From Bacilli bacterium (GTDB lineage: Bacteria > Bacillota_I > Bacilli_A > RF39 > UBA660), in NCBI GenBank assembly GCA_036658935.1, contig JAVXDN010000002.1, forward strand, positions 1 to 39,507: 39,507 bases of DNA, given 5' to 3'. The translations under genes were made by a program, and so were the position numbers. Positions 9,752 to 39,507 of this stretch are shown here, piece after piece. The first letter of the stretch is position 1. Each line of letters starts with the position of its first letter. The notes below the pieces were generated by a model. The model was not told the origin of the DNA. It did no database searches and saw only the letters and a program-made list of their open reading frames with translations.

Positions 9752-10222
9752 ATGAAAAAATTATTTAAAGAAAACAAAATATTATTTATTTTAGGAGCTG
9801 TTATATTTATAAGTATTATAGTGATTATAGTATGTATGTTTATATATTTCTTTGGAAAAGATGCTAATAAATATGGAAATAGATTAAATGGAATAGAAAG
9901 TGTTGAAATATCAAAAGATAATGAAACTAAATTAAATAATTTATATAAAGATAATAAATCTGTAAATAAAGTAAACTATAACTTAAAAGGTAAAATTATA
10001 TATATAACTATTGAATTAAAAGAAGTACTAAAGTTAGAAGATGCTAAAAGTTTAGCTGTTAAATCTTTAGAAGTATTTAGTGATGAAGTTAAAGCTTATT
10101 ATGATATTTCATATACTATAAATGTACTAGATAATAAGGATAATAAATTATATCCAACACAAGGATATAAAAATAATTCATCCGCTCAAATAGTTTGGGT
10201 AAAACCAAATACGCAAGAATAA
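9752..10222 (+). CDS. Small N-terminally anchored protein, unknown function
   Basis: The ATG at 9752 follows RBS gaggtga. The ORF-track GTG start at 9743 lies inside that RBS. One TM segment. Confidence 0.6.
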   Translation: MKKLFKENKILFILGAVIFISIIVIIVCMFIYFFGKDANKYGNRLNGIESVEISKDNETKLNNLYKDNKSVNKVNYNLKGKIIYITIELKEVLKLEDAKSLAVKSLEVFSDEVKAYYDISYTINVLDNKDNKLYPTQGYKNNSSAQIVWVKPNTQE

Positions 10223-10239
10223 AGAAAAGAGTGAAATAA

Positions 10240-12270
10240 ATGAGAAATAAAAAAGATGTAAAATTATATCTAATTATCGGAATAATTGCATTATCAGTTA
10301 TAGGATTAATTATAGGAATAATTATATATTTTAATAGTTCTAAAAAGTCTTATACATTTATAGAGAAAAAATGGATTAATGATAATATTAATAATGTTAT
10401 AGATATAAGTGTACCTGCTAACCTACCAGTATTCGCATCATCTGGTACAGGAGTTTTCTATGACTTTTTAAAAGACTTCTCAAAAGACACTAATCTTACA
10501 TTCAATAAAGTAAGTAATAAAGAAACATCATATTCATTTAATGTAAAAAAAGATCCAAACAAAAAAGATGTTGTTTTATATAAAGATCATTATGTAGTAG
10601 TAAGTAAAACTAATATTAAAGTATCATCATTAAATGACTTACAAAATCATAAAATAGCAGTCTTAGAAAATGATCTTACAAGTATTTCAGAGTACTTAAA
10701 TACAACAAATGGAATATCTATAACATCATATAGAACATTAACAGAAATCAAAGAACAACTAGAAGATTCTGCCTCATTTGCAATTATTCCACTTAACTCA
10801 TCACTACAAGAAATAGTAGAACAAAATTACAACATAGTTTATCATTTAGATGGATTGAATGTTTATTATACTTTAAGTACTCCTGGAACTAATGATAAAT
10901 TTAATAGTATATTAAATAAATTTTATACAAAATGGAAAGACAAAGAAGAAAAATTAAGAAATAAATACATATTAGATATTTATTACAAATCCAAAGGATT
11001 AACAGAACTAAAAAAAGAAGAAATAATGAAAGATGATTATATTGTAGGATATATTAAGAGTCTACCTTACGAAGGAAACGTTCATAATAAATTTAGTGGA
11101 ATAACTGCTGGATACTTAGAAGGCTTTTCCGAGTTTTCAGGTTCAACTTATAAATATAAAGAATATAAAAGTGTTGAAAAACTAGCTTCTTCATTAAACT
11201 CTAAGAAAATAGATATAAATCTTAATTATTATGGTTTATCATCTTCATCATATGATGTCTCTCCAACACTAGGATCTATTGATTATTATGTTTTATTAAA
11301 TAATAAAAATAACCTAATAATAGATAGTCTTTCATCATTAAAAAATGAAAAAGTATTAATGCTATCAAATACAATATTAACTAGAGAATTAAATAACACA
11401 GGACTTCTTAATATAAAAGAAAGTGGTTTCTCTAAACAACTATTAAAATCATTAAATAATAGCTCAATATTAATAGTAGATAAAGAATTTTATGATTTAT
11501 ATAAGACAACAGAACTAAAAGAATTTAAAATTGGATATAAAGGAAATGTAGATGCATATAATGAATTTCTACTTAATAATTCAAACACTGAATTCAATAA
11601 ATTATTTAATTTTTACTTAAGTATAACAAGTCCTAACATGATAAAAGCAACAGCTGTATATAACACTGCATCTAACTTAAACTCTAATTTATTTACACGC
11701 TTTATTATAAAAAATATTTCATATATAGTTATATGTGTCTTAGCATTAGCATTCTTCTTCTATAAATTTAATCAAAAAATACAAATATCAAAGAAAATTA
11801 AAAAAGAAGATAAATTATTATATCTTGATGTAATGACTAACTTAAAGAATAGAAATTATTTAAATGAAAATATAGAATATTGGGAAGAAAATAAAGTATA
11901 CCCACAAGCTATAATAACAGTAGACTTAAATAACATAAAATCTTTAAATGATCTTCATGGTCATGAAGAAGGAGATAAACAAATAAAAGCAGCATCTAAC
12001 ATATTAATTAAAACTCAAAGAGAAAACTCTGAGATAGTTAGAACTGATGGAAATGAATTTCTAATATACATAATTGGTTATAATGAAAATATGGTAACTA
12101 CTTATATACATAAATTAACAAAAGAATTTAGATCCCTTCCATATAGTAATGGAGCATCTATTGGATACTCTATGATAGAAGATGAAATAAAAACAATAGA
12201 TGACGCTATAAACGAATCATTAATAATGATGAGAAAAAACAAAGAGGTACAAAGTGAGAACAAGGCTTAA
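10240..12270 (+). CDS. Membrane sensor with extracytoplasmic solute-binding-like domains and a C-terminal GGDEF domain carrying a degenerate active site (DGNEF)
   Basis: N-terminal TM, a ~460-aa ectodomain (KIAVLENDLTSISEYL is SBP-like) and a second TM. The GGDEF fold follows: DVMTNLKNRNYL, VDLNNIKSLNDLHGHEEGD, RTDGNEFLIY. The signature reads D-G-N-E-F where GG[DE]EF is expected (12046-12060). Confidence 0.8.
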   Translation: MRNKKDVKLYLIIGIIALSVIGLIIGIIIYFNSSKKSYTFIEKKWINDNINNVIDISVPANLPVFASSGTGVFYDFLKDFSKDTNLTFNKVSNKETSYSFNVKKDPNKKDVVLYKDHYVVVSKTNIKVSSLNDLQNHKIAVLENDLTSISEYLNTTNGISITSYRTLTEIKEQLEDSASFAIIPLNSSLQEIVEQNYNIVYHLDGLNVYYTLSTPGTNDKFNSILNKFYTKWKDKEEKLRNKYILDIYYKSKGLTELKKEEIMKDDYIVGYIKSLPYEGNVHNKFSGITAGYLEGFSEFSGSTYKYKEYKSVEKLASSLNSKKIDINLNYYGLSSSSYDVSPTLGSIDYYVLLNNKNNLIIDSLSSLKNEKVLMLSNTILTRELNNTGLLNIKESGFSKQLLKSLNNSSILIVDKEFYDLYKTTELKEFKIGYKGNVDAYNEFLLNNSNTEFNKLFNFYLSITSPNMIKATAVYNTASNLNSNLFTRFIIKNISYIVICVLALAFFFYKFNQKIQISKKIKKEDKLLYLDVMTNLKNRNYLNENIEYWEENKVYPQAIITVDLNNIKSLNDLHGHEEGDKQIKAASNILIKTQRENSEIVRTDGNEFLIYIIGYNENMVTTYIHKLTKEFRSLPYSNGASIGYSMIEDEIKTIDDAINESLIMMRKNKEVQSENKA

Positions 12271-13222: not shown

Positions 13223-15244
13223 ATGAAAATAAGAATAAAAAAATTAACTAATAAAATTTTTAATAGCATAAAAAAATATTTTACTACAAATGTATTATTT
13301 ATAACATTTGTGATTTTTACGTTGCTTATAGATATAATATTAAGATTTACTACTGTAGGATTAGTAGTATCTATTAGACCTATTATTTCAGATATGGCAT
13401 TCGCTCTATTTATAGGAAGTATAGGATATTTAATAAAACCAAAAAATCAAATTAAATATTATTTTATATTAACACTATTATTTAGCTTTCTAGCTATAGT
13501 GAACTCAATTTATTATAGTTTCTTTATGTCATATATTTCAGTGAACTTATTATCTACTCTATCAATGGTAGGAGAAGTAACTGGAGCAGTGTCTAGTAAA
13601 CTGAATTTAAAACATTTTATATACATTATATTCCCAGTAATGTTACTTTTAATACACTATGCACTTAAGAAAAGAAAATATTATAAAGAGATAACTGCTT
13701 TAGTAAATGGAAAAATAATGATAAAAAAGACATTATTATCAGCATTATTATTAACTTGTGTTCTAGCTATTACATTAAGAGGAAACGACATATCAGCATT
13801 TCAAAAACAATGGAATAGAGAATATGTGGTACAACAATTCGGAATATATGTATACACAATAGATGACTTAGTACAAAGCTTAGAACCTAAATTTACTTCA
13901 TTATTTGGTTATGATGAAGCAGCTCGTGAATTTAGAGAATTTTATTCAAAAAGAGAATATTATAAAGAAAAAAATAAATTCACAAATGAATTTAAAGGAA
14001 AAAATATAATATTTGTCCACATGGAAAGTATACAAAGTTTCTTAGTAGATTTAAAAGTAAATGATATTGAAATAACACCAAATATAAATAGACTAACTAA
14101 AGAAGGAATATATTTCTCTTCGTTTTATCCACAAATTAGTGTAGGAACATCTGCAGATACAGAATTTACGTTAAATACTGGAATAATGCCTTCTTCTAGT
14201 GGAACAGTATTTGTTAACTTTTATGATAGAGAATATGAATCACTTGAAAAGAAATTCAAAGAAATGGGATATTATACTTTCTCAATGCATGCTAATAACG
14301 GAGACTATTGGAATAGAAACTTAATGCATAAATCACTTGGATATGATAAGTTTTATTCAAAAGATTCATTTAATGTAACTAAAGATAATAAAATAGGACT
14401 TGGATTAAGTGATAAAGAATTCTTTAATCAAGGAATACCAATAATTAAAAAAATATCACAAGATAATAAGAACTTCTTTGGAACAGTAATTACATTAACT
14501 AATCATTCACCATTTAGTGATCCAAAAGCATTTGGAGATTTAAATTGGAGTAAAACAGTTGATGTAGTAGATAATGGAGTAACTACACAAAAAGTAGTAC
14601 CATACTTAGAAGGAACAGAGATGGGAAACTACCTTAAAAGTGCACACTACGCTGATGAAGCATTAGGACAACTAATTAATCAACTTAGAAGTGAAGGAAT
14701 ACTAGATAACACTGTAATCGCTTTATATGGAGATCATGAAGCTAGAATGAATAAAAAACAATTTGATTATCTATATAACTATGACCTTCTAACTGAAAAT
14801 ATAAAAGATAAAGAAGATCCAACATATATAAGTTTTGATAATTATAAATCAGAACTAATGAAGAATACACCATTTATAATATATAATGGAACAAAGAATT
14901 ATAACTTAGAAGTAAAAAACGTAATGGGAATGTATGATGTTATGCCTACAATCGCTAATATGTTTGGATTTGATTTCAAATATGCTCTTGGAAATGATAT
15001 ATTTTCTAAATCAGAAAAAATAGTTATATTTCCTAATGGAAACTTTCTAACAAATAAAGTATATTATAATAGTTTAAGAGATGAATATATTTTATTAACT
15101 AACGAACCTATAGAAAGTGATTATATAGAACGACTTAAAAAATATACAGTAGAAAGACTAGATATATCAAAAGGGATAGTAGAACATAACTTAATAAAGA
15201 ATGAAAAAGAAAAATTGGAGGTCAGTATACATGAAACTAAATAA
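13223..15244 (+). CDS. ltaS: LTA synthase (LtaS) family sulfatase-domain protein
   Basis: Five N-terminal TM helices plus an extracellular sulfatase/alkaline-phosphatase fold: FVHMESIQSF, GTSADTEFTLNTG (Thr nucleophile region), TLTNHSPF, LYGDHE. Confidence 0.85.
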   Translation: MKIRIKKLTNKIFNSIKKYFTTNVLFITFVIFTLLIDIILRFTTVGLVVSIRPIISDMAFALFIGSIGYLIKPKNQIKYYFILTLLFSFLAIVNSIYYSFFMSYISVNLLSTLSMVGEVTGAVSSKLNLKHFIYIIFPVMLLLIHYALKKRKYYKEITALVNGKIMIKKTLLSALLLTCVLAITLRGNDISAFQKQWNREYVVQQFGIYVYTIDDLVQSLEPKFTSLFGYDEAAREFREFYSKREYYKEKNKFTNEFKGKNIIFVHMESIQSFLVDLKVNDIEITPNINRLTKEGIYFSSFYPQISVGTSADTEFTLNTGIMPSSSGTVFVNFYDREYESLEKKFKEMGYYTFSMHANNGDYWNRNLMHKSLGYDKFYSKDSFNVTKDNKIGLGLSDKEFFNQGIPIIKKISQDNKNFFGTVITLTNHSPFSDPKAFGDLNWSKTVDVVDNGVTTQKVVPYLEGTEMGNYLKSAHYADEALGQLINQLRSEGILDNTVIALYGDHEARMNKKQFDYLYNYDLLTENIKDKEDPTYISFDNYKSELMKNTPFIIYNGTKNYNLEVKNVMGMYDVMPTIANMFGFDFKYALGNDIFSKSEKIVIFPNGNFLTNKVYYNSLRDEYILLTNEPIESDYIERLKKYTVERLDISKGIVEHNLIKNEKEKLEVSIHETK

Positions 15245-15854
15245 AAAAAAGATATTAATAGTATCATTAATAGTTTTAGAAATAGGACTATTAAGTGTAC
15301 TTGGATTTAAAATATATCAAGATTTATTTAAAAAAGATAAAGAACAAGTTAAAAAAGAAAATCTAGATACTTTAAAATTATATGGATACACTTTAGATGA
15401 TAAAGATACTGATACATATAAAAAATACTTTAAAGAATTAAAAATCATATTGTCACGTGAAGAACAAAAAGAAGAAGAATATGCTAAAGTATTAACACAA
15501 TTATTTGTAACTGACTTCTTTACATTATCTAATAAACTAGCTTCTACAGACATAGGATCGTTAGAATTTATACATCCAAGTATAGTTGATAACTTTAAAT
15601 TAAATGCAGGAGATACAATCTATCACAGTGTTAAGAGTAATCTTTATGATGATAGAATACAAGAATTACCAACTGTAAAAAATGTATTAATTACTGACTT
15701 AAAAAAAGGTAAATATGAATATAATAAAAAGACATATGATTCATATATAATTACTTCTTCTTGGGAATATGATAAAGATCTAGGATATCAAACATCTGGA
15801 ACATTCACATTAATTAAAGATAATAATAAATTGAATATAGTAGAATTTAAGTAA
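15231..15854 (+). CDS. N-terminally anchored protein, unknown function, translationally coupled to ltaS
   Basis: ATG at 15231 after RBS ggagg (15216-15220). Overlaps the ltaS stop. One TM. Confidence 0.6.
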   Translation: MKLNKKKILIVSLIVLEIGLLSVLGFKIYQDLFKKDKEQVKKENLDTLKLYGYTLDDKDTDTYKKYFKELKIILSREEQKEEEYAKVLTQLFVTDFFTLSNKLASTDIGSLEFIHPSIVDNFKLNAGDTIYHSVKSNLYDDRIQELPTVKNVLITDLKKGKYEYNKKTYDSYIITSSWEYDKDLGYQTSGTFTLIKDNNKLNIVEFK

Positions 15855-29573: not shown

Positions 29574-30215
29574 ATGAAGAAAACATTAATATTAATAATT
29601 TCTATATTGCTTGTATTCCCTACATTAATAAATGCAGAATGTAGTAATGAAACATTAATTGAATATTCTAAAAGTATACAAACAACAATCATTAATACAT
29701 CATATCCAAATACAATAGAATTACATATCAGTGGAATAAATGATTATATATATATAAAAGTAAAAAATAATTTAGAAACAGAAGAAAAAATATATACATC
29801 AAAAGATAAAAATGAATATGGATTTATTGTCTTGTCATCTCCTAATATAAATAAACAACTCATTTACGAAGTCTTAATATACAGTAAAGACACAGGATGT
29901 GGAGAAAAACCACTAAGAACTATAAAGACTAAAACAGAAAAATATAATAAATACTCTTCATACGCAGTATGCAAAGAAGCTAAAGATTTTAAATATTGCC
30001 TAGAATATTATGATACAGATAATTTAAGTGAGAATGAATTTTTAATAGAAGTAAATAAATATATAGAATCATCAAATAAAACTATGTTTGATAAAGTTTT
30101 AGAAGTTATATTAAAATATGGAATCTATGTATTAGTTCCTATTATAGTAGTTGGAGGGTTTTTTATAATTAAAACAATTATATATAAAAAGAAGGTGAAG
30201 CATGAAACAAAATAA
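29574..30215 (+). CDS. Type-I membrane protein; paralog B of ORF 28875-29525
   Basis: Signal peptide ...FPTLINA|EC, C-terminal TM VLVPIIVVGGFFII and basic tail, with the same four-Cys spacing as paralog A. Confidence 0.65.
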   Translation: MKKTLILIISILLVFPTLINAECSNETLIEYSKSIQTTIINTSYPNTIELHISGINDYIYIKVKNNLETEEKIYTSKDKNEYGFIVLSSPNINKQLIYEVLIYSKDTGCGEKPLRTIKTKTEKYNKYSSYAVCKEAKDFKYCLEYYDTDNLSENEFLIEVNKYIESSNKTMFDKVLEVILKYGIYVLVPIIVVGGFFIIKTIIYKKKVKHETK

Positions 30216-33200
30216 TAAAAATAATAAAGTATTAATAATAGTAACATTATTATGTTTATTTATCCCATTCTCTAAGTTAAATGCATCCCCTGAACATATA
30301 ACATTAGTTTTTAGAAATGGGCCAGCTTCTTCTAGCTCATTTAGATACTTACATAGTAACGTTAATATTGGTGGAAAAAGTGAAATAAAGGAAGTTGAAA
30401 GTGTTAAAGCTTGTAAAGATAAAAGAGGTATAGTAGAAACTTTTAATTATGAAGTAGGTTATGCTACTTGTGCACCAGATGAAAAAAAGACAGTAGGCTA
30501 TACATGTGGTTCTCCTATTGGGGTTTATTATCGTTTAGATGCAGCCCCATGTAAAAATGCACAAATGACTTGTAATAAAAATAATATACAAACTAATTTT
30601 AAAGCAGATAAAGTAATATCAAAAACAACTATCAAGACAAAAACGCCTACAGAAAATCCTCCATCAGTAAATCATACTTTAAAAAGTGTGAATTGTTCTA
30701 TTACATCATCCGGAAGAATAGAAACAAGAGAAATAACTGGATATATGTATAAAGTAAAAGGTACAAGCGATGAAACATACTGTATAGATCCAGGCTTAGA
30801 TTTCGAAGCTAATAGTAACTATACAATAGATAATACTTTTCATCTACCAAACTCTACTAATAAAGAAAAACAATTTTATAATGGATTAGTAACTATAATT
30901 CAAGCAGGAAAAGAAAGGGGGTACTCTCCAGATGCAATAGAAACAGCATTAAGACTTTGGACAGGCGCTATGTCTATTGAAGGCGGAGCAGATGGATACT
31001 GGAATGCAGAAGATCAATGGAGTACATCAACATCAGTATTTTCTGTAACCTCTTCACTTATTGTAAAAGACTTATATACTGAATATGTATCTAATATTAA
31101 AACAAATAAAGACTTCGCTCCTGGAGTAATGTTTTCATTAAATGATACCAATGATGCATGGGGAAAAGCAGTATGGCTTTTTTATGATGTATATAAAGGA
31201 AGAATAAAACAATGGAGTCCAAGTATTAAAACAAAATCTTCAACTTACAGAATATCAGATAATCATAAAACTACTATCACAATAGAAACAAACCTTAACA
31301 ATGAAACTACAATAGACGGAATAACATCATCTGATACGAGATTTTCTCCTGAAATAGTAAAAAAATATCAATGTGGGAATAAATATTGTTATGATGTATT
31401 GGTAAGTTCTACAAATATTAATTTAAAGGAAACATCATCTTATCCAGTGTCTTTTGAATTTTCCTATACAGACACAAGAAATCCTGAAAATAGAATAAAT
31501 ATGTATAATCCTGATAAAGGTAAAAAGTATCAGAAAATGATGCTATATGAGAGTGTTCCATCTAAATCAAAAATATCCCTTTCAGTAGTATTCACTACAC
31601 AAGAAATAACAAATCCTATATGTGAAGGTGAAATAAAATCTGATATAAGTACCAGTTGTAATGATAAAACTACTTCAAGTATTATAGACCCATCAATGGA
31701 CAACATTATTGACCCAAATTGCCAAAGAAACAATTATGTATTTAAGAGTAAAACATCTGGATATTTTAAAGTATATTGTAGAGAAGAATCATATTTTAAT
31801 TTTCTTGATAAAGTTGATGTCAACTCAGGAAAATATTTCAAATATAATACCAAAACTTTCTTAGATAAAAAAAATAACATAAATACCACATCATCAATTA
31901 AACAAGTAAGAGAATGTAGCGTAAAAATTGATTATAACGGTTGGAAAAATGAATATGATAGTATAAATAAAAAAGTACTAGATGATTATAATGAATATCA
32001 AAAATATTTATCATTACAAAATGCTAATTACACAACTTCTATAGGACATGATTCAGATTCATCTAGAGGATGTGCTAATTGTTGTAATTGCCACGAATGT
32101 GGGACTAAAGAAAAACCAAAAACATGCTGTTCATCTGGAAAAGGAGGAAAAGCAAGTACTTCATGGACAAGCTATAAATGGAATTCAACATATACATATA
32201 CTAATCCAAATGGAAGCACAGTAACTAAAACCGCAGAATTAAGTTCTCCTGGAAGTGGTAGTGTAACATGTGATCCATGTAGTGGATGTAGGGTAAGTTC
32301 TTATAATGGAAACCCTAATAAAAATGCAAATATAAGTGTGCCATATTATAATACATATAAAGAATCAGTTAATAAAAGAGATAAACTTTTAGAAGATATG
32401 GAATATTATTCAATGTATGATAAAAACATTGTTTCATCTCCTAGCACATCTATTACATTAAATAAAGCTACTAGTTTATATAAATATCTACTAGATCCTT
32501 CTACATACACAGATCCTACATTAACTCTTGAGTATAAAGATACTGAATATCGTCACCCTGAAATTGCAAGTAAAAAAGAATACTCAGAACCTAAAACATC
32601 GTATTGTGTAGGGTGTAGTAGTACTAAATCATTAAATCCAACTATAGGTACAAATAATATTAACTATTATAATTGTAGTAATAACTCTTGCAGTAAAACA
32701 ACTGCAGAAGTACCAAATAGTACATTAAATAACATAAATATAACAAGAGAAGTACAATTTTATAATAACGATGAATATTACACTAATATATTAACTGGAG
32801 GATATACTACAACTCCAGGAGAAAATAAATTAAGACTTGAAAATTATGCATATCCTGTACATCTTAATACTAAAAGTGGTGAGTATGAAGTTTCATTAAC
32901 ATATAAAAACTTAAATAACACAAAGAAATTTATTGAAAGAAAAAAGGATATACTATTTGATAATATTACTTCAAAATTTGATAATACATATTATTGTACA
33001 TATAATGCTACAAATAAAATACCTTTTTGGAGTGAAAAAGAAGTATATGGAATAGTCTTTAGACCGGTTGATCTTACAAACTTATTCCCAGGTGGAAGAG
33101 AAATTGGAGAAAACTGGGCAAAAGAATTAGATATAATTAAATATATACAAAAATTAGGAAATAACATATGGACTAATTCAAAATCAACTCCACAATACAC

Positions 33201-33405
33201 AGTTATACTAACACCAAAAGAAATACAAAATATCAAGTGGTATAATCAAAATAAAAATTATTTATCTTCTGAAACTCTTAAATGTGATGGAGCAACTTGT
33301 ATAAGCACCATGCTTAAAAATCATGATTACGTATTTAATTACAATAAATTAAATGTTTCAACTGATCCATATGGAAATAGTTACAGATTTAAGGGAGGTA
33401 ATTAA
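30202..33405 (+). CDS. Large (1067 aa) secreted Cys-rich protein of unknown family; candidate pilus-associated adhesin or tip factor
   Basis: Signal peptide (VLIIVTLLCLFIPFSKLNA|S). No C-terminal TM or LPXTG motif seen. Dense Cys clusters GCANCCNCHECG...TCC (32071-32130) and TCDPCSGC (32269-32289). Overlaps the upstream gene by 14 nt and ends 3 nt before the next gene. Confidence 0.6.
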   Translation: MKQNNKNNKVLIIVTLLCLFIPFSKLNASPEHITLVFRNGPASSSSFRYLHSNVNIGGKSEIKEVESVKACKDKRGIVETFNYEVGYATCAPDEKKTVGYTCGSPIGVYYRLDAAPCKNAQMTCNKNNIQTNFKADKVISKTTIKTKTPTENPPSVNHTLKSVNCSITSSGRIETREITGYMYKVKGTSDETYCIDPGLDFEANSNYTIDNTFHLPNSTNKEKQFYNGLVTIIQAGKERGYSPDAIETALRLWTGAMSIEGGADGYWNAEDQWSTSTSVFSVTSSLIVKDLYTEYVSNIKTNKDFAPGVMFSLNDTNDAWGKAVWLFYDVYKGRIKQWSPSIKTKSSTYRISDNHKTTITIETNLNNETTIDGITSSDTRFSPEIVKKYQCGNKYCYDVLVSSTNINLKETSSYPVSFEFSYTDTRNPENRINMYNPDKGKKYQKMMLYESVPSKSKISLSVVFTTQEITNPICEGEIKSDISTSCNDKTTSSIIDPSMDNIIDPNCQRNNYVFKSKTSGYFKVYCREESYFNFLDKVDVNSGKYFKYNTKTFLDKKNNINTTSSIKQVRECSVKIDYNGWKNEYDSINKKVLDDYNEYQKYLSLQNANYTTSIGHDSDSSRGCANCCNCHECGTKEKPKTCCSSGKGGKASTSWTSYKWNSTYTYTNPNGSTVTKTAELSSPGSGSVTCDPCSGCRVSSYNGNPNKNANISVPYYNTYKESVNKRDKLLEDMEYYSMYDKNIVSSPSTSITLNKATSLYKYLLDPSTYTDPTLTLEYKDTEYRHPEIASKKEYSEPKTSYCVGCSSTKSLNPTIGTNNINYYNCSNNSCSKTTAEVPNSTLNNINITREVQFYNNDEYYTNILTGGYTTTPGENKLRLENYAYPVHLNTKSGEYEVSLTYKNLNNTKKFIERKKDILFDNITSKFDNTYYCTYNATNKIPFWSEKEVYGIVFRPVDLTNLFPGGREIGENWAKELDIIKYIQKLGNNIWTNSKSTPQYTVILTPKEIQNIKWYNQNKNYLSSETLKCDGATCISTMLKNHDYVFNYNKLNVSTDPYGNSYRFKGGN

Positions 33406-33824: not shown

Positions 33825-33877
33825 ACAAAAGACTTCCTATTATCTTTATTGATTTTAGGAGCTTTTTGTTTTATAAT
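33825..33877 (+). promoter_or_regulatory. Imperfect hairpin with T-tract, then TATAAT; possible partial terminator plus internal promoter ahead of the cpaB-like gene
   Basis: acaaaagacttcct (33825-33838) pairs imperfectly with aggagctttttgt (33857-33869). TATAAT at 33872-33877. RBS agggag before the ATG at 33910. Confidence 0.3.
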
Positions 33878-33909: not shown

Positions 33910-34719
33910 ATGAAAAATTTAAAAGCAACATTAAAAAGATTCTTTACAAATAAAAATACAGTAACTATTCTTTGTGTAATAGGAGCAGTATTAGTACTAT
34001 TTTTTGGATATAATTGGAGAATTAAACAAGTAACTACACCAGTAAGAGTTCCTTATGCATTAAAAAACATTCAACCTAGAACTGTAATAACAGAAGATAT
34101 GATAGGTTATGTAGAAATACCACAAAGCATGTTAACACCAAATACTGCTAGAACAGTTTCAGAAGTGTTAAATAAATATGCTAGTTTTAATACTGTAATA
34201 CCTAAAGGAAGTTTATTTTATAAAAGTGCAATAATGACTTGGGAACAAATGCCAGATTCAGCTTGGGCAGATATACCTGATGGATACACAGTTGTATCTC
34301 TTCCAGTAACAACAGAAACAACTTATGGAAATTCAATATTTCCAGGAAACTATATAGACCTTTATTTTCAATCATACGATGAAACAGGAAAACTTATATT
34401 CGGAAAATTCATAGAAAGTATTGATGTATTAGCAGTTAAAGATAGTAGTGGAAAACATGTATTTGAAAATAGTGATACATTAGGTACTCCCTCATCATTA
34501 ATATTTGCAGTTCCTGAATCTCTTCATTTATTATTAAGAAAAGCATCTTATATGTCTGGAGAGATAATACCAGTACCTAGAAATGCAAGCTATTCACAAA
34601 ATCCATCCGCTACTATTGTAAGTAGTGAATACTTAAAGAACTTTATATTATCACAAACAGTAGTAATACCCGATGAAAAATTACCTTCACTTGATGAAAA
34701 CATTAAACCAAAAGAATAA
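33910..34719 (+). CDS. cpaB: Flp/Tad pilus assembly protein CpaB/RcpC-like (SAF plus RcpC domains)
   Basis: N-terminal TM. SAF-like PVRVPYALKNIQPRTVITEDMIGYVEIPQSML...VIPKGSLF. RcpC-like IPDGYTVVSLPVTTETTYGNSIFPGNYIDLYF. Confidence 0.75.
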   Translation: MKNLKATLKRFFTNKNTVTILCVIGAVLVLFFGYNWRIKQVTTPVRVPYALKNIQPRTVITEDMIGYVEIPQSMLTPNTARTVSEVLNKYASFNTVIPKGSLFYKSAIMTWEQMPDSAWADIPDGYTVVSLPVTTETTYGNSIFPGNYIDLYFQSYDETGKLIFGKFIESIDVLAVKDSSGKHVFENSDTLGTPSSLIFAVPESLHLLLRKASYMSGEIIPVPRNASYSQNPSATIVSSEYLKNFILSQTVVIPDEKLPSLDENIKPKE

Positions 34720-34741: not shown

Positions 34742-35863
34742 ATGAATGATACAATATTTGAACAAATAGATTTTGGACCTTTAATCCCTTTGTTACAAGA
34801 AGATGATTATACAGATATCTCCTATTCAAATGGTGGAGGATTATTTGTAAAAAGTCTTACAAAAGGTGTGTTTAAAATAGAAAATAATCCATTAATAAAT
34901 AATGCATTAATGGAGAAAATAGCATTTCAATGTTCAAACGTAATGGGTAAAACATTTAACATGGCTCATCCTTTCCTTGATGCAGAAAATGCAGAACTTC
35001 GTTTAAACTTTGTACATGAATCAATCGCTACAAATGGTATAGCGGTATTAATTCGTAAAACTCCAGCTAAGATAAGATTGAATAAAGATAAATTATTAAA
35101 AGAAAACTATGTATCTCTACAACTTCATGATTTTTTATTTAAATGCATAGAAGGACACTGTAATGTAATAGTAAGTGGAGAAACTGGTAGTGGAAAAACA
35201 GAACTAGTTAAATATCTAGCTGCACATACTGGAGAAAATGAAAAATTAATTACAATAGAAGATACTCTAGAACTACACTTAGATAAGATATTTCCAAATA
35301 GAGATATAGTCGCAATGAAAACAAATAATATAGCATCTTATACTGAAATATTAGTAACTTGTATGAGACAAAACCCTAAATGGATATTACTTTCTGAAGT
35401 ACGTTCAGCTGAAGCAGTAACTGCAGTTAGAAACTCTATATCTTCAGGACACAATATAATTTCAACTATCCACTCAGATAAAGCTTCCTCAATCCCAATG
35501 CGTATGTATTCACTTCTAGAAACAAACCTAGATGCTGAACAATTCTTAAAGAGTATTCACAGATATATACACTTAGGAGTTCATGTAAAAGGATATATGT
35601 CAAAAAAATACAATCGTTTTCAAAGAGAAATAGTAGAAGTATGTGAATTCTATGTTGATGAAAATAACGAAGCTAAAACTAATACATTATACAGTAAAAC
35701 AATGGATGGTAAAGAAATATATCATAATCCAACTAAATACTTACTTGATTATTTATCAGCTGGAGGAATAGACATTCCAAAAGAAACATTTGTAAATGAT
35801 GAAGGAATATTAAAAACATCAAATGAAGAAACAAAACAAGAAGAAATAATAGAAATACTTTAA
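34742..35863 (+). CDS. tadA: Tad/type IV filament secretion ATPase (CpaF/TadA, T2SSE/VirB11 superfamily)
   Basis: Walker A GETGSGKTE (35177-35200), Asp box ITIEDTLEL, Walker B ILLSEVRSAEA, His box GHNIISTIHS. N-terminal YTDISYSNGGGLFV. At 373 aa it is short for CpaF. Confidence 0.88.
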   Translation: MNDTIFEQIDFGPLIPLLQEDDYTDISYSNGGGLFVKSLTKGVFKIENNPLINNALMEKIAFQCSNVMGKTFNMAHPFLDAENAELRLNFVHESIATNGIAVLIRKTPAKIRLNKDKLLKENYVSLQLHDFLFKCIEGHCNVIVSGETGSGKTELVKYLAAHTGENEKLITIEDTLELHLDKIFPNRDIVAMKTNNIASYTEILVTCMRQNPKWILLSEVRSAEAVTAVRNSISSGHNIISTIHSDKASSIPMRMYSLLETNLDAEQFLKSIHRYIHLGVHVKGYMSKKYNRFQREIVEVCEFYVDENNEAKTNTLYSKTMDGKEIYHNPTKYLLDYLSAGGIDIPKETFVNDEGILKTSNEETKQEEIIEIL

Positions 35864-35888
35864 AAAAATATGATAGGAGGTGCTAATT

Positions 35889-36791
35889 ATGTATATACTA
35901 GAAATACTTATAATATCATTTCTAATTCTTTTTATGATTTTATATCGTAAAAATGATGGAGAAAAGTTTTATAAATTCTTTTCAAATACAATAATGAACA
36001 CCTATAATAAATATGCTCCATATTCATATAAAGAAGTAAAAGAAAAAGTAAAACAATTAGGTGGAAACTTTACATTAAAACAATATATAATTCAAATAAT
36101 AGTATTAGGAGGCTTCTTTGGAGTAGTTGGATACTTATACTTTTATAGTTTAATATATGCTCTTATCTATGCAGGATTAGCTATTGCATTTATTCCATAT
36201 CTTGCTTACTTAAGAAGCTATAAAATATATAGTGAATACGTATTTGAACAAATACAAGTATATACTACTAACGTAATAATGGAATTCAATACTACTCAAA
36301 GCTTTGTAAAAGCTTTAGAAGGAGTAGCAGAGAGTGGAGTACTAGAAGACCCTGTATTATCTGATGTAAAAGAAATGATAAGACTTTCATATAACAATGG
36401 AAATATAGAAGATCCAATAAACTATATGAACTCAAAATATGACTACTACATAGTTAAAAATATGCATCAATTATTCCTTCAAATAACACAAGAAGGTGCA
36501 AAAGACGCAGGAGAATCTCTTGAGAATATGTTACAAGATATAGATATGTTAGTAGAAGGAGTATATAGAGATAGAATGGATAGAGATGGATTTCATAAGA
36601 AATTCATTACATTTGGTTTTGCTCTTTTTGCCCTTATAATATTAATACAATATTTACTAGGAAGAGCTTCATATATGGAACTTGTACAATTATGGTATGT
36701 CCAAATAATACTTCATGGAGTAATACTAATAAATACTGGATTCTTACTAAGTGGAGAAAAATATTATAATCAAGAAGTAGGTGCTGAATAA
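35889..36791 (+). CDS. tadB: TadB-like platform protein (T2SSF domain)
   Basis: Start set at the ATG at 35889, 8 nt after AGGAGG; the ORF-track GTG at 35880 abuts the RBS. Has an N-terminal TM, a TM pair, a soluble helical T2SSF-like domain and C-terminal TMs. Sits directly downstream of tadA. Confidence 0.7.
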   Translation: MYILEILIISFLILFMILYRKNDGEKFYKFFSNTIMNTYNKYAPYSYKEVKEKVKQLGGNFTLKQYIIQIIVLGGFFGVVGYLYFYSLIYALIYAGLAIAFIPYLAYLRSYKIYSEYVFEQIQVYTTNVIMEFNTTQSFVKALEGVAESGVLEDPVLSDVKEMIRLSYNNGNIEDPINYMNSKYDYYIVKNMHQLFLQITQEGAKDAGESLENMLQDIDMLVEGVYRDRMDRDGFHKKFITFGFALFALIILIQYLLGRASYMELVQLWYVQIILHGVILINTGFLLSGEKYYNQEVGAE

Positions 36792-37573
36792 TGGAAATAC
36801 TAATAGTAGGAATATTAATAATTATAGCACTCATAGTAAATGGAAGAATAGATACAAAAAAGTTTATAAAAGATAATGAATTAGCGGTTAATATATTAAA
36901 AGAATCTGATTATGACTTTTTAGTAAGAGCAAAATATGGAGATAAAGTAACTCCAGAAGAAATGTTTAGAAAAAGAGTAAAAAACTCCCTTTTAATATTT
37001 ATAATAATGTTATTTATTTTAATCGCACAAATAAACTTCTTAAATATAGTTCTTTGTGTAATAGTAACAGTAGTAATGTTCAAATCATATTATTTAACAC
37101 TTAAATCATATTATAAAAAACATCTTCATGAGATAGATCTCTTACTTCCTTATTACTTAAAATCTTTAGAAATATTAATGCAACATTATACAGTACCAGT
37201 AGCATTAGGAAAATCTATAAAAGATGCTCCCGCTATATTTAAAGATGGATTAGATATATTAATAAGTAAAATAAATGCAGGAGATGGTTCAATAGATCCA
37301 TATATGGAATTCGCTATTTCTTATCCAGTAAGAGATTCAATGAGAATGATGAGATTACTTTATAGATTAGGTATGGGAAATCAAGAAAGAAAAGATGAAC
37401 AATTAATGACTTTCTCTAGAACTATTTCATCTCTACAAAATAAAAGTAGAGAAACTAAATATAAAGAAAGATTAAATAAAATGGAAAGTAAAACAATGTT
37501 AATGCTATCAGTAACTGGTATTGGAGTATTATTACTTCTTATGTTGACAATAATAAGAATGTTTAATGTATAA
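36791..37573 (+). CDS. tadC: TadC-like platform protein (T2SSF domain)
   Basis: TAATG overlap with tadB and the same topology class as tadB. T2SSF-like soluble region LLPYYLKSLEILMQHYTVPVALGKSI. Confidence 0.7.
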   Translation: MEILIVGILIIIALIVNGRIDTKKFIKDNELAVNILKESDYDFLVRAKYGDKVTPEEMFRKRVKNSLLIFIIMLFILIAQINFLNIVLCVIVTVVMFKSYYLTLKSYYKKHLHEIDLLLPYYLKSLEILMQHYTVPVALGKSIKDAPAIFKDGLDILISKINAGDGSIDPYMEFAISYPVRDSMRMMRLLYRLGMGNQERKDEQLMTFSRTISSLQNKSRETKYKERLNKMESKTMLMLSVTGIGVLLLLMLTIIRMFNV

Positions 37574-37586
37574 CTTAAACACATTA

Positions 37587-37615
37587 TTGATTAATATGAA
37601 AAAATTAAGTATAAT
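37587..37615 (+). promoter_or_regulatory. Near-consensus sigma-A promoter dedicated to the pilin gene
   Basis: TTGATT (37587-37592), 17-bp spacer, TATAAT (37610-37615). Strong RBS aggaggg, ATG at 37648. Confidence 0.65.
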
Positions 37616-37647
37616 GAAATATATAAAGTAGAGGAGGGTGATAATAA

Positions 37648-37923
37648 ATGAAAGGTGCAACAGAGGAACTAAATATGACAGTAATTGCAGTAGTTGCAGT
37701 CGCTGCAGTCGCAGCGTTATTCTATGCATTCGTATGGCCAATGATTCAAAGAAGTATAGCAGATAATACATGTCAAACTTACGGAGAAGGATTCCATGCA
37801 GTAAAGAACACTGCAACTGGTGGTGGAGATGCAGGAACAGGAGCAAGCAAAACAAGCAAATGGGTATGTTGTCCAAAAGGAGTAACATCTGCCTCAGATT
37901 CATCTTGTGTAGCCGCTGACTAA
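37648..37923 (+). CDS. Candidate major pilin (Flp/type IV-like, atypically long and Cys-containing)
   Basis: MKG|ATEELNMTVIAVVAVAAVAALFYAFVWPMI: a short basic leader ending in Gly, acidic residues just after it, then a ~22-residue hydrophobic helix. The C-terminal part is Gly/Ser/Thr-rich with 4 Cys (C42, C74, C75, C87). Its position after tadC is as in Tad loci. Confidence 0.6.
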   Translation: MKGATEELNMTVIAVVAVAAVAALFYAFVWPMIQRSIADNTCQTYGEGFHAVKNTATGGGDAGTGASKTSKWVCCPKGVTSASDSSCVAAD

Positions 37924-37944: not shown

Positions 37945-38436
37945 TTGAAAGAATCAATAGGTGGAACTTGGTTATTAGGCTTAGTGGTACTATTTATAGT
38001 ACTTTTTTCTGCTTTCTTAGCAATCTCAATAAATTATACAAAAGCATTTAAAGTAAAAAATCAAATAATAAATATAATAGAACAAAATGAAGGATACTCT
38101 AATAGTAGTAAAAGAAACTTATCAAGTGTAAGTGATTCAGAACTTAGAAGTAGTAAAAATACAGAAGATAAAGTATATTTATATATAAGAAGTATAGGTT
38201 ATGCATCTGAAAGTATAAGTCAAAATAAATGTAATGGTATTGGAGATAAAGAAGAAGGTGGATACTGTATACAAAGAATATGTACAGAGAATGGTAGTTA
38301 CTATAAAGTAACATCATTTGTTAAAATAGAACTTCCACTTATGTGGCAATCATTCACTGTACCTATAAGTGGAGAAACAAAAGCTATATACAAAGATAAT
38401 AGTAATTTATCAGGTCCATCTCATAGAGGATGTTAA
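37945..38436 (+). CDS. Small N-terminally anchored protein; candidate minor pilin (TadE-like)
   Basis: TTG start. The encoded MKESIGG leader matches MKESLWG of ORF 33409-33822. Hydrophobic helix, then a soluble domain with 4 Cys. Confidence 0.45.
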   Translation: MKESIGGTWLLGLVVLFIVLFSAFLAISINYTKAFKVKNQIINIIEQNEGYSNSSKRNLSSVSDSELRSSKNTEDKVYLYIRSIGYASESISQNKCNGIGDKEEGGYCIQRICTENGSYYKVTSFVKIELPLMWQSFTVPISGETKAIYKDNSNLSGPSHRGC

Positions 38437-39477: not shown

Positions 39478-39507
39478 TTGACTTACCCTTATTATAAATT
39501 ATATAAT
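39478..39507 (+). promoter_or_regulatory. Sigma-A-like promoter for a gene beyond the window
   Basis: TTGACT (39478-39483), 18-bp spacer, TATAAT (39502-39507, at the window edge). Confidence 0.4.

Follow-up and report, generated by a model that had tools for sequence, protein, structure and literature searches.

Type IV pilins have the shape of a 'lollipop', as defined in PMC10191384, and by the rule given there major pilins retain a conserved Glu, which the capping minor pilin is without. That definition, which starts from the class III signal peptide, names a hydrophilic leader with Gly or Ala at its end, cut off by a prepilin peptidase, then 20-25 mostly hydrophobic residues, a long alpha-1 helix packed on a beta-sheet head, and subunits that form a filament; Glu at mature position 5 is frequent but not obligatory. 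The pilins of Tad systems have no globular domain (PMC12786226). Miller et al. 2022 (PMC9523054) predicted, by computation, an operon of CpaF, PilC/GspF and DUF5411 genes in the Clostridia Roseburia, Ruminococcus and Eubacterium; they reported no pilin that could be recognised in it, and no significant resemblance of its other genes to known components. According to reviews (PMC12857230, PMC12102498) the conjugation systems of Gram-positive bacteria are without pili and pilins, and in recent reviews the cooperation of type IV pili with conjugation systems is known from Gram-negative elements only. Here we describe a gene cluster on contig JAVXDN010000002.1 of a Bacilli bacterium (positions 1 to 39,507; this whole stretch of 39,507 nt is called the window), in which a small gene encodes a 91-residue protein, p91, that an earlier note on the same DNA had proposed as an atypical pilin. 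In our favoured reading, which is probable if far from certain, p91 would be the major subunit of a pilus that resembles type IV filaments, has not been characterised before and is powered by a CpaF-type ATPase. Most likely this pilus system has a DUF5411 protein as its marker and is found in gut Bacilli that have not been cultured.

The p91 gene and the elements that belong to it are the following.

37587-37615, + strand: sigma-70-type promoter of the p91 unit, TTGATT-17 nt-TATAAT, read directly and found by promoter scan
37631-37638, + strand: ribosome-binding site GAGGAGGG, 10 nt 5' of the ATG; AGGAGG is conserved in the upstream alignment
37648-37923, + strand: p91, 91-aa pilin-like protein, candidate major subunit; open reading frame (ORF) confirmed, start MKGATEELNMTVIAVVAVAAVAALFYAFVWP
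37648-37665, + strand: p91 codons 1-6 (MKGATE), possible leader, with a unique Gly3/Glu6 codon swap
37675-37740, + strand: p91 hydrophobic helix M10-W30, which ends at the invariant Pro31
37687-37713, + strand: three imperfect 9-bp units encoding AVV-AVA-AVA (Tandem Repeats Finder)
37771-37920, + strand: variable Gly/Ser/Thr-rich head of p91 with Cys42, Cys74, Cys75 and Cys87

Relatives of p91 were found by tblastn at 484 places in the GTDB species representatives. The best 80 of these 484 places, together with 8 loci obtained through exact-protein look-ups, give the 88 related loci compared here, with flanks of at most 10 kb. Almost all of the best 80 belong to gut Bacilli that have not been cultured and that go under the labels Bacilli, Mollicutes, Tenericutes or 'Clostridium sp. 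CAG'. A word-indexed search returned 45 clusters of p91 proteins; in an exhaustive profile search the number of 50%-identity clusters rose to 609 at E up to 1e-3, and 132 of these lie below 1e-10. The family carries no annotation: the sole name seen in the 45 clusters of the word-indexed search is 'hypothetical protein'. Against Pfam, NCBIfam and PDB sequences p91 gave chance-level transmembrane matches only, searches of the PLSDB plasmids with p91 and with the neighbouring membrane protein m260 gave zero matches, and no description of such a pilin family was found in the literature searched.

Conservation is concentrated at the N-terminus. In 78 distinct sequences the mean identity is 98% over residues 1-12 (MKEATGELNMTV), 75% over residues 1-41 and 24% over the remainder. 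Codons 3-6, 9, 11 and 12 vary synonymously among relatives, and we thus conclude that selection acts on the protein. Members so distant that they fall in other 50%-identity clusters still have MKEATGEL-x-x-TV, a hydrophobic helix and Pro31, followed by Cys-rich tails that are unrelated; Glu7, Leu8, Thr11 and Pro31 are invariant even there. The four cysteines with a CC pair that the earlier note had read in p91 are present, and in the family the number of cysteines is always even (4 or 6). The sequence WxCC occurs in 56 of the 78 members, which makes it a family trait.

To the same family we applied AlphaFold2, using a 45-sequence alignment. The resulting model of p91 (mean predicted local distance difference test score, pLDDT, 73.9) has a helix from residue 5 to 45 and strands at residues 49-53, 72-76 and 88-89. 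Residues 11-50 score 82-91 and the head 51-77; the stretch M10-W30, whose 21 hydrophobic residues fall within the 20-25 of type IV pilins, is predicted helical at pLDDT 91. A long helix bearing a small sheet agrees with the 'lollipop' shape of pilins, at the modest confidence of the modelled head. The pilin-like character claimed earlier is supported, as p91 has a short tail at its N-terminus, a hydrophobic helix of 21 residues and a small head that is variable and contains cysteines. A conserved N-terminus followed by a hypervariable Cys-rich C-terminus would also fit many leader-plus-core precursors, and p91 could be a small secreted Cys-rich protein or peptide precursor with a Sec signal peptide or an export/modification leader at its N-terminus. 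However, the 21 hydrophobic residues lie in one helix continuing to residue 45, they are followed by no conserved AxA-type cleavage site, signal peptides are not 98% conserved across clusters under 50% identity, and no conserved modification enzymes or dedicated exporters are encoded nearby. We have rejected the signal-peptide and precursor readings on the length of the helix and the extreme N-terminal conservation, and regard them as very improbable.

The p91 gene stands within a cluster whose other features in the window are listed below.

30202-33405, + strand: secreted 1067-aa Cys-rich protein, possible adhesin; relatives lie upstream of DUF5411, with 27% identity over 950 aa
33409-33822, + strand: DUF5411 protein with an MKESLWGY N-terminus and a hydrophobic helix, third pilin-like protein (PF17424, 4e-51)
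33849-33877, + strand: second conserved promoter, TTGATT-17-TATAAT, ahead of the CpaB-like gene (promoter scan)
33910-34719, + strand: CpaB/RcpC-like protein with SAF and RcpC domains, both sub-threshold (PF16976 9e-6, PF08666 9e-4, TIGR03177 2.3e-7)
34742-35863, + strand: CpaF/TadA-type secretion ATPase (Pfam T2SSE, 3e-24)
35880-36791, + strand: m303, second polytopic membrane protein, presumed TadB-like, conserved partner of m260
36791-37573, + strand: m260, polytopic membrane protein, named 'tadC' in the earlier note; its family numbers at least 6862 clusters, all of them lacking Pfam domains
37945-38436, + strand: p163, second pilin-like protein (MKESIGG...), candidate minor pilin with a single N-terminal hydrophobic helix
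38447-39469, + strand: p340, cytoplasmic protein, found after p163 in nearly all loci extending that far

The order CpaB-like gene, ATPase, m303, m260, p91, p163, p340 is kept in about 80% of the loci with enough upstream DNA. The p91 gene directly follows the membrane-protein genes of a CpaF-type (Tad/archaeal-type) ATPase cluster, the gene called 'tadC' among them, and it does so in about 80% of the related loci. Among the cluster components only the ATPase and the DUF5411 protein score above any family-profile threshold. Of the solved structures CpaF lies nearest to the ATPase (8.6e-20), ahead of archaeal GspE and FlaI and, behind these, VirB11. The p163 protein consists of its single N-terminal helix and a conserved Cys-containing domain, and its gene always comes after p91. 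For m260 an AlphaFold2 model (pLDDT 74.6) was compared with solved structures by Foldseek; the top four matches are cytoplasmic domains of EpsF/OutF (GspF), and they are weak (probability 0.72-0.77, TM-score 0.46-0.48 normalised by target length, E ~1). The name 'tadC' therefore has weak support from structure but none from sequence, as 61 members are without T2SSF, and we consider it plausible but weakly supported. Comparison of m260 with m303 by hhalign gave no paralogy beyond the first helix. Searches with p340 against Pfam, NCBIfam and PDB sequences gave zero matches; its receiver-like N-terminal half and degenerate P-loop suggest that it may be TadZ-like, which no tool confirmed. Nothing was returned by PDB profile searches with m260, m303, p340, p163 and d114, a small protein encoded after p340 in relatives.

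The promoter ahead of p91 has its -35 element (TTGATT) at 37587-37592 and its -10 element (TATAAT) at 37610-37615, with a 17-nt spacer and a score of 10/12. Taken alone it is unexceptional within the AT-rich window: the 11.5-kb region scanned contains 77 promoter-like sites, and shuffled sequence 93 +/- 12. The earlier note had called it the best promoter in the locus; the site is there as read, but it is not uniquely the best, since an identical copy lies at 33849-33877 and two further sites match at 11/12. It rises above chance because it is conserved at the same position across related loci. In about 65 of 77 distinct related upstream regions TTGA(T/A)(A/T)-17-TATAAT ends 27-41 nt before the p91 ATG, frequently with a TG extension and followed by AGGAGG, with spacer sequences that differ between loci. 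Judged by this conservation the p91 promoter is genuine. A control scan with the same motif found it absent upstream of DUF5411, m303, p163 and p340 and present before the ATPase gene in 2 of 58 loci. The first CpaB-like gene is preceded by TTGAnn-17/18-TATAAT in 38 of 55 loci. As conserved promoters precede only the CpaB-like gene and p91, the cluster has two of them, and p91-p163-p340 form a transcription unit of their own. The strong ribosome-binding site noted before is also confirmed, with its GGAGG core at 37633-37637, 10 nt ahead of the p91 ATG, and AGGAGG conserved among related loci. Thus p91 has, as had been supposed, its own promoter and a strong ribosome-binding site.

The three-residue leader (MKG|) of the earlier note did not survive the comparison with relatives. 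Gly3 occurs in the window copy alone, and 77 of the 78 sequences begin with MKEATGEL, which has Glu3 and Gly6; when the N-termini of relatives beside the 'tadC' gene are aligned, the MKG| site is not shared by the family. The window copy, MKGATEEL, is unique among the 78 in its Gly3/Glu6. Its codons 3 and 6 (GGT and GAG, within 37654-37665) are an exact swap of the family codons (GA[AG] and GG[TA]), by which the sole Gly of the N-terminal tail is shifted from position 6 to 3. The MKGATE variant recurs in three other, independent samples.

The single-helix proteins of the cluster, three families not otherwise related, share a start of the form M-[KR]-E-[AS]-x-G, namely MKEATG in p91, M[RK]E[AS]xGG in p163 and MK[EH][SAT]xWGY in the DUF5411 protein, and the motif is absent from the other cluster proteins. 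Gly6 is present in 95% of the p163 family. In locus L082 a p163-type protein begins with the identical MKEATG and diverges after it. Divergent clusters (L076, L080, L082 and L085, at ~10000-11800, and L089) have two p91-type and two p163-type genes in tandem. Prepilins, major and minor, on which a single peptidase or machine acts would look alike in this way. Being common to the pilin-like proteins of the cluster, the motif points to Gly6, or to the invariant tiny residue at position 4 (Ala4 in p91), as the possible -1 residue. Position 7 is Glu or Asp in all p91-type proteins and not in most p163-type proteins, a contrast that recalls the rule for major and capping minor pilins. Glu7 would be +1 if the cut were after Gly6, +3 after Ala4 and +4 after Gly3. 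The earlier note had held its pilin call to be refuted if a different small Flp-type gene supplied the pilin; in a pattern scan neither the window nor the 88 related loci contained a canonical Flp ORF, or an ORF of some other pilin, that could replace p91 as subunit. The sole canonical prepilin end (KG|FTLVE) in the 88 loci belongs to a 756-aa protein in locus L057 (L057:12475-14745), encoded directly after d114, with the N-terminus MKNKKG|FTLVELLAVIAIL. From this end it follows that at least some hosts should encode a prepilin peptidase elsewhere.

Several observations weigh against p91 as a filament subunit. No pilin family model reaches its threshold for the p91 family, the Flp, N-methyl and TadE profiles give no match, and the p91 model gave no meaningful match in the PDB with Foldseek, its head being of modest confidence. 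The acidic residue is never at +5 of any plausible mature end, the window copy is without the family Gly6, and the presumed leader varies no more than the helix does, an unusual trait in a leader. The positive-inside rule does not secure the topology, as the N-terminal tail carries a net negative charge. A prepilin peptidase (A24, GxGDxK, multi-spanning ORF) was not found in the window or in ~1.3 Mb of the 88 related loci. Pfam T2SSF is absent from 28 m303 as well as the 61 m260 members. Finally, in about ten loci p91-p163-p340 and a conjugation system occur without ATPase, m303 and m260 within 10 kb.

Some of these points would be expected if p91 were a single-pass membrane protein that does not polymerise and whose invariant tail and helix dock into the ATPase and platform or into a conjugation machine. 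It could then be an assembly or alignment factor, or an anchor in the membrane that displays a variable ectodomain, for example a receptor or an exclusion determinant. This would account for the missing peptidase, the lack of a Glu at +5 and of a structural match to solved pilins, and the loci that do without the ATPase module, and for a run of 12 N-terminal residues that are all invariant, the supposed leader included. On the other hand, the gene has a strong promoter and ribosome-binding site to itself, kept from locus to locus, which suggests that the protein is required in large amounts; an invariant helix that carries an exposed, hypervariable head is classically the mark of filament subunits; and the tandem paralogues, together with the motif that p91 has in common with two more single-helix proteins, look like a major pilin and its minor partners. 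We therefore hold a non-polymerising p91 to be unlikely, although it is the most serious competitor of the filament.

The related loci occur in three settings. In the first the cluster is followed by conjugation genes of the type found in mycoplasma integrative and conjugative elements (ICEs), encoding VirB4 (NF045975, 9e-104), a VirB6-like protein, a TcpE-like protein and an M23/lysozyme hydrolase, and an FtsK-like coupling protein is encoded upstream. In the second there are two CpaB paralogues and zero conjugation genes within 10 kb. The loci of this second setting have the cluster directly upstream of genes for a 689-aa polytopic membrane protein and a 204-aa protein (L009:12412-15079), a gene pair that is also in the window (13223-15854), 13 kb from the cluster. 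From a reading of its sequence the 689-aa protein may be LtaS-like. The third setting is that of the approximately ten loci without the ATPase module (L005:10001-20273, also L006-L008, L047, L054, L056, L058, L064 and L075). Here the p91 promoter is intact, the CpaB-like gene too is missing within 10 kb, and the unit is directly preceded by chromosomal genes (a Mur ligase).

After p340 nearly all relatives encode d114 (L001:11840-12184), a small two-helix protein with a Cys-rich tail; L005 has four tandem paralogues of it (L005:11784-13859). It weakly resembles the 'Mbov_0395 pilin-like conjugal transfer protein' of mycoplasma ICEs (E 0.006-0.04). A second contig of the window organism has a strong terminator behind p340, where the cluster stops; an ASCH-like gene comes next, and neither conjugation genes nor d114 are present past p340. 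As d114 is absent from the window organism, it cannot be a subunit of the window cluster. The promoter of their own, the third-setting loci beside VirB4, VirB6-like and TcpE-like genes and the weak likeness of d114 to the mycoplasma ICE protein are what would be seen if p91, p163 and p340 (with d114 in relatives) were an accessory module of a Gram-positive conjugation system, e.g., a mating adhesin or channel accessory, and did not belong to the CpaF-type machine. But the cluster of the window organism lacks both conjugation genes and d114 before its terminator and beyond, many loci combine a CpaF-type module and the p91 unit with no conjugation genes within 10 kb, and m260 is the most constant neighbour of p91. 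We find a purely conjugative role of the unit quite improbable.

If p91 is a filament subunit, as we favour, its life would run as follows. It would be transcribed from its own promoter, whose conservation is shown by the comparison between loci, and translated from the strong ribosome-binding site, and it would insert in the membrane via the 21-residue helix with a disulfide-bonded head outside. A prepilin peptidase encoded elsewhere would perhaps remove the short leader, in the family after Gly6 or the invariant Ala4 (MKEATG), and in the window copy after Gly3 or Ala4 unless the cut is absent. The CpaF-like ATPase with m303 and m260 would then extract the subunits and stack them via their invariant N-terminal helices, leaving the hypervariable heads exposed. 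The p163 and DUF5411 proteins, which share the N-terminal motif, may serve as minor pilins, and the 1067-aa Cys-rich protein is perhaps the adhesin of the system. In relatives beside a mycoplasma-ICE-type system the filament would aid mating contact. As no conjugation genes follow the cluster in the window organism, a general adhesion function is more likely there.

The three 9-bp units within the helix codons are located where the earlier note had placed them (Tandem Repeats Finder sets them at about 37686-37712, with period 9 and 3.0-3.4 copies that match at 86-88%; the score, 40-41, is low). The in-frame slippage that they were thought to allow has left no trace: there are zero indels in residues 1-41 across the 78 sequences. 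Copy number, compared between relatives, does not change either, as helix length is constant in 78 homologues, and there is thus no sign of slippage. The units result from the Ala/Val codons and form no slippage tract. A rise in GC had been noted here as a local spike; the rise is real but is not confined to the repeat, as the whole gene has 40-50% GC and its flanks 20-30%. A terminator-like hairpin at 37701-37716, inside the p91 ORF, was rejected as another by-product of the codon repeat; it is the 1 such hairpin found in the 11.5-kb region, and 1.9 are expected by chance.

At the 5' side of the cluster, the 1067-aa protein has a signal peptide and an extremely Cys-dense stretch RGCANCCNCHECGTKEKPKTCCSS and gave zero family matches in Pfam and NCBIfam. 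Relatives of 970-1260 aa hold the same position upstream of DUF5411, and two signal-peptide proteins are encoded upstream of its gene in the window. At the other end, positions 39478-39507 hold a near-consensus promoter (TTGACT-18-TATAAT, 11/12). In the second contig of the same organism (L092:2130-2330) that promoter is followed by ~100 nt, a strong terminator (GGGAGC-aaaa-GCTCCC and a T run) and the ASCH-like gene. The region could encode a small RNA or a regulatory leader; a search against Rfam gave no match for the window or for L092.

Metagenomes of the gut contain the system around p91 very commonly: m260 has at least 6862 clusters, and p91 relatives were found at 484 places in species-representative genomes. 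A likely subunit, a conserved promoter and a shared N-terminal signature can now be named, which gives experimenters concrete targets. The hypervariable head of p91 suggests selection by hosts, phages or mating partners.

Comparison with described systems places p91 nearest to, but outside, several of them. Like the Flp/Fap pilins of Tad (type IVc) systems, e.g., Aggregatibacter Flp1 and Caulobacter PilA, p91 has an N-terminal hydrophobic helix. Its gene likewise lies beside those of a CpaF/TadA-type ATPase, two presumed platform proteins and a protein with sub-threshold likeness to CpaB/RcpC, and pilin-like genes follow. Unlike Flp, it does not match PF04964, at E up to 1, and neither does any of 47 diverse members. 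The G/XXXXEY motif is also missing, as neither MKGATEEL nor the family MKEATGEL holds a Glu-Tyr pair; a TadV/CpaA peptidase gene is found neither in the window nor in the 88 loci; and the platform proteins are without the T2SSF signature. The possible leader of p91 has 3-6 aa, and Flp leaders are longer. Tad pilins also differ in their heads, as p91 has a predicted disulfide-containing head of three strands and 4-6 Cys, modelled at modest confidence. With four defining features lacking, p91 is not Flp and stands outside that family, yet it would work like a type IV pilin.

Archaeal type IV pilins (PF07790) resemble p91 in that the leader, in p91 a possible one, is short, that Glu5 is not strictly required and that the ATPase belongs with CpaF, archaeal GspE and FlaI. 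Sub-threshold matches to PF07790 (archaeal Pilin_N) were obtained for 6 of the 47 members, the best with E 0.0028, and none for the window p91. Member P0226 scored 12.8 bits, the cut-off being 25.2; repeat Pfam runs recovered 1 of the 6 matching members, and no cleavage register is derivable from them. The host, unlike those of archaeal pilins, is bacterial, the family consensus has Thr and not Lys/Arg at -2 of the Gly6 site, and no archaeal-type peptidase was found. The type IVa pilins and the ComGC competence pilins have a leader of six residues with Gly at its end, as the possible leader has in the p91 family consensus, and they are also alike in the conserved Pro of their hydrophobic alpha-1 helix and in a small beta-sheet head, in p91 a predicted one, with Cys pairs. 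They differ in that the acidic residue of p91 would be at +1 and not +5, in that p91 has no F/M-T-L-I-E motif and no PF07963 match, and in assembly genes that are here of Tad/archaeal type and not PilB/PilC.

The operon of PMC9523054 has the same markers as the window cluster, i.e., a CpaF-like ATPase, a membrane platform, DUF5411 and a large surface protein among 8-9 genes in gut Firmicutes, and it probably belongs to the same system family. That account does not describe the p91 proteins, nor their promoter or the N-terminal signature common to the pilin-like proteins, which are added here.

A last parallel is with the type IV pili of conjugative elements (the PilS-PilV thin pilus of R64/TP114, and PAPI-1), as in many relatives the putative pilus cluster likewise adjoins a conjugative type IV secretion system on one element. 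Unlike these type IVb pili of Gram-negative elements, the p91 cluster occurs in a Gram-positive-type host and beside a mycoplasma-ICE-type conjugation system, and the window copy has no adjoining conjugation genes. As a speculative view, to which we give little weight, the p91 family might supply the major pilin for a distinct clade of type IV filaments, still without a name, in gut Bacillota with a single membrane, a clade characterised by DUF5411, a CpaF-type ATPase and a platform invisible to existing profiles. Such a clade would use a non-canonical, near-invariant six-residue MKEATG signal, perhaps without a dedicated peptidase, and would form a conjugative pilus when on mycoplasma-ICE-type elements. 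If the filament is real, the statement that Gram-positive conjugation systems lack pili would need revision, because the p91 unit adjoins such systems in many relatives.

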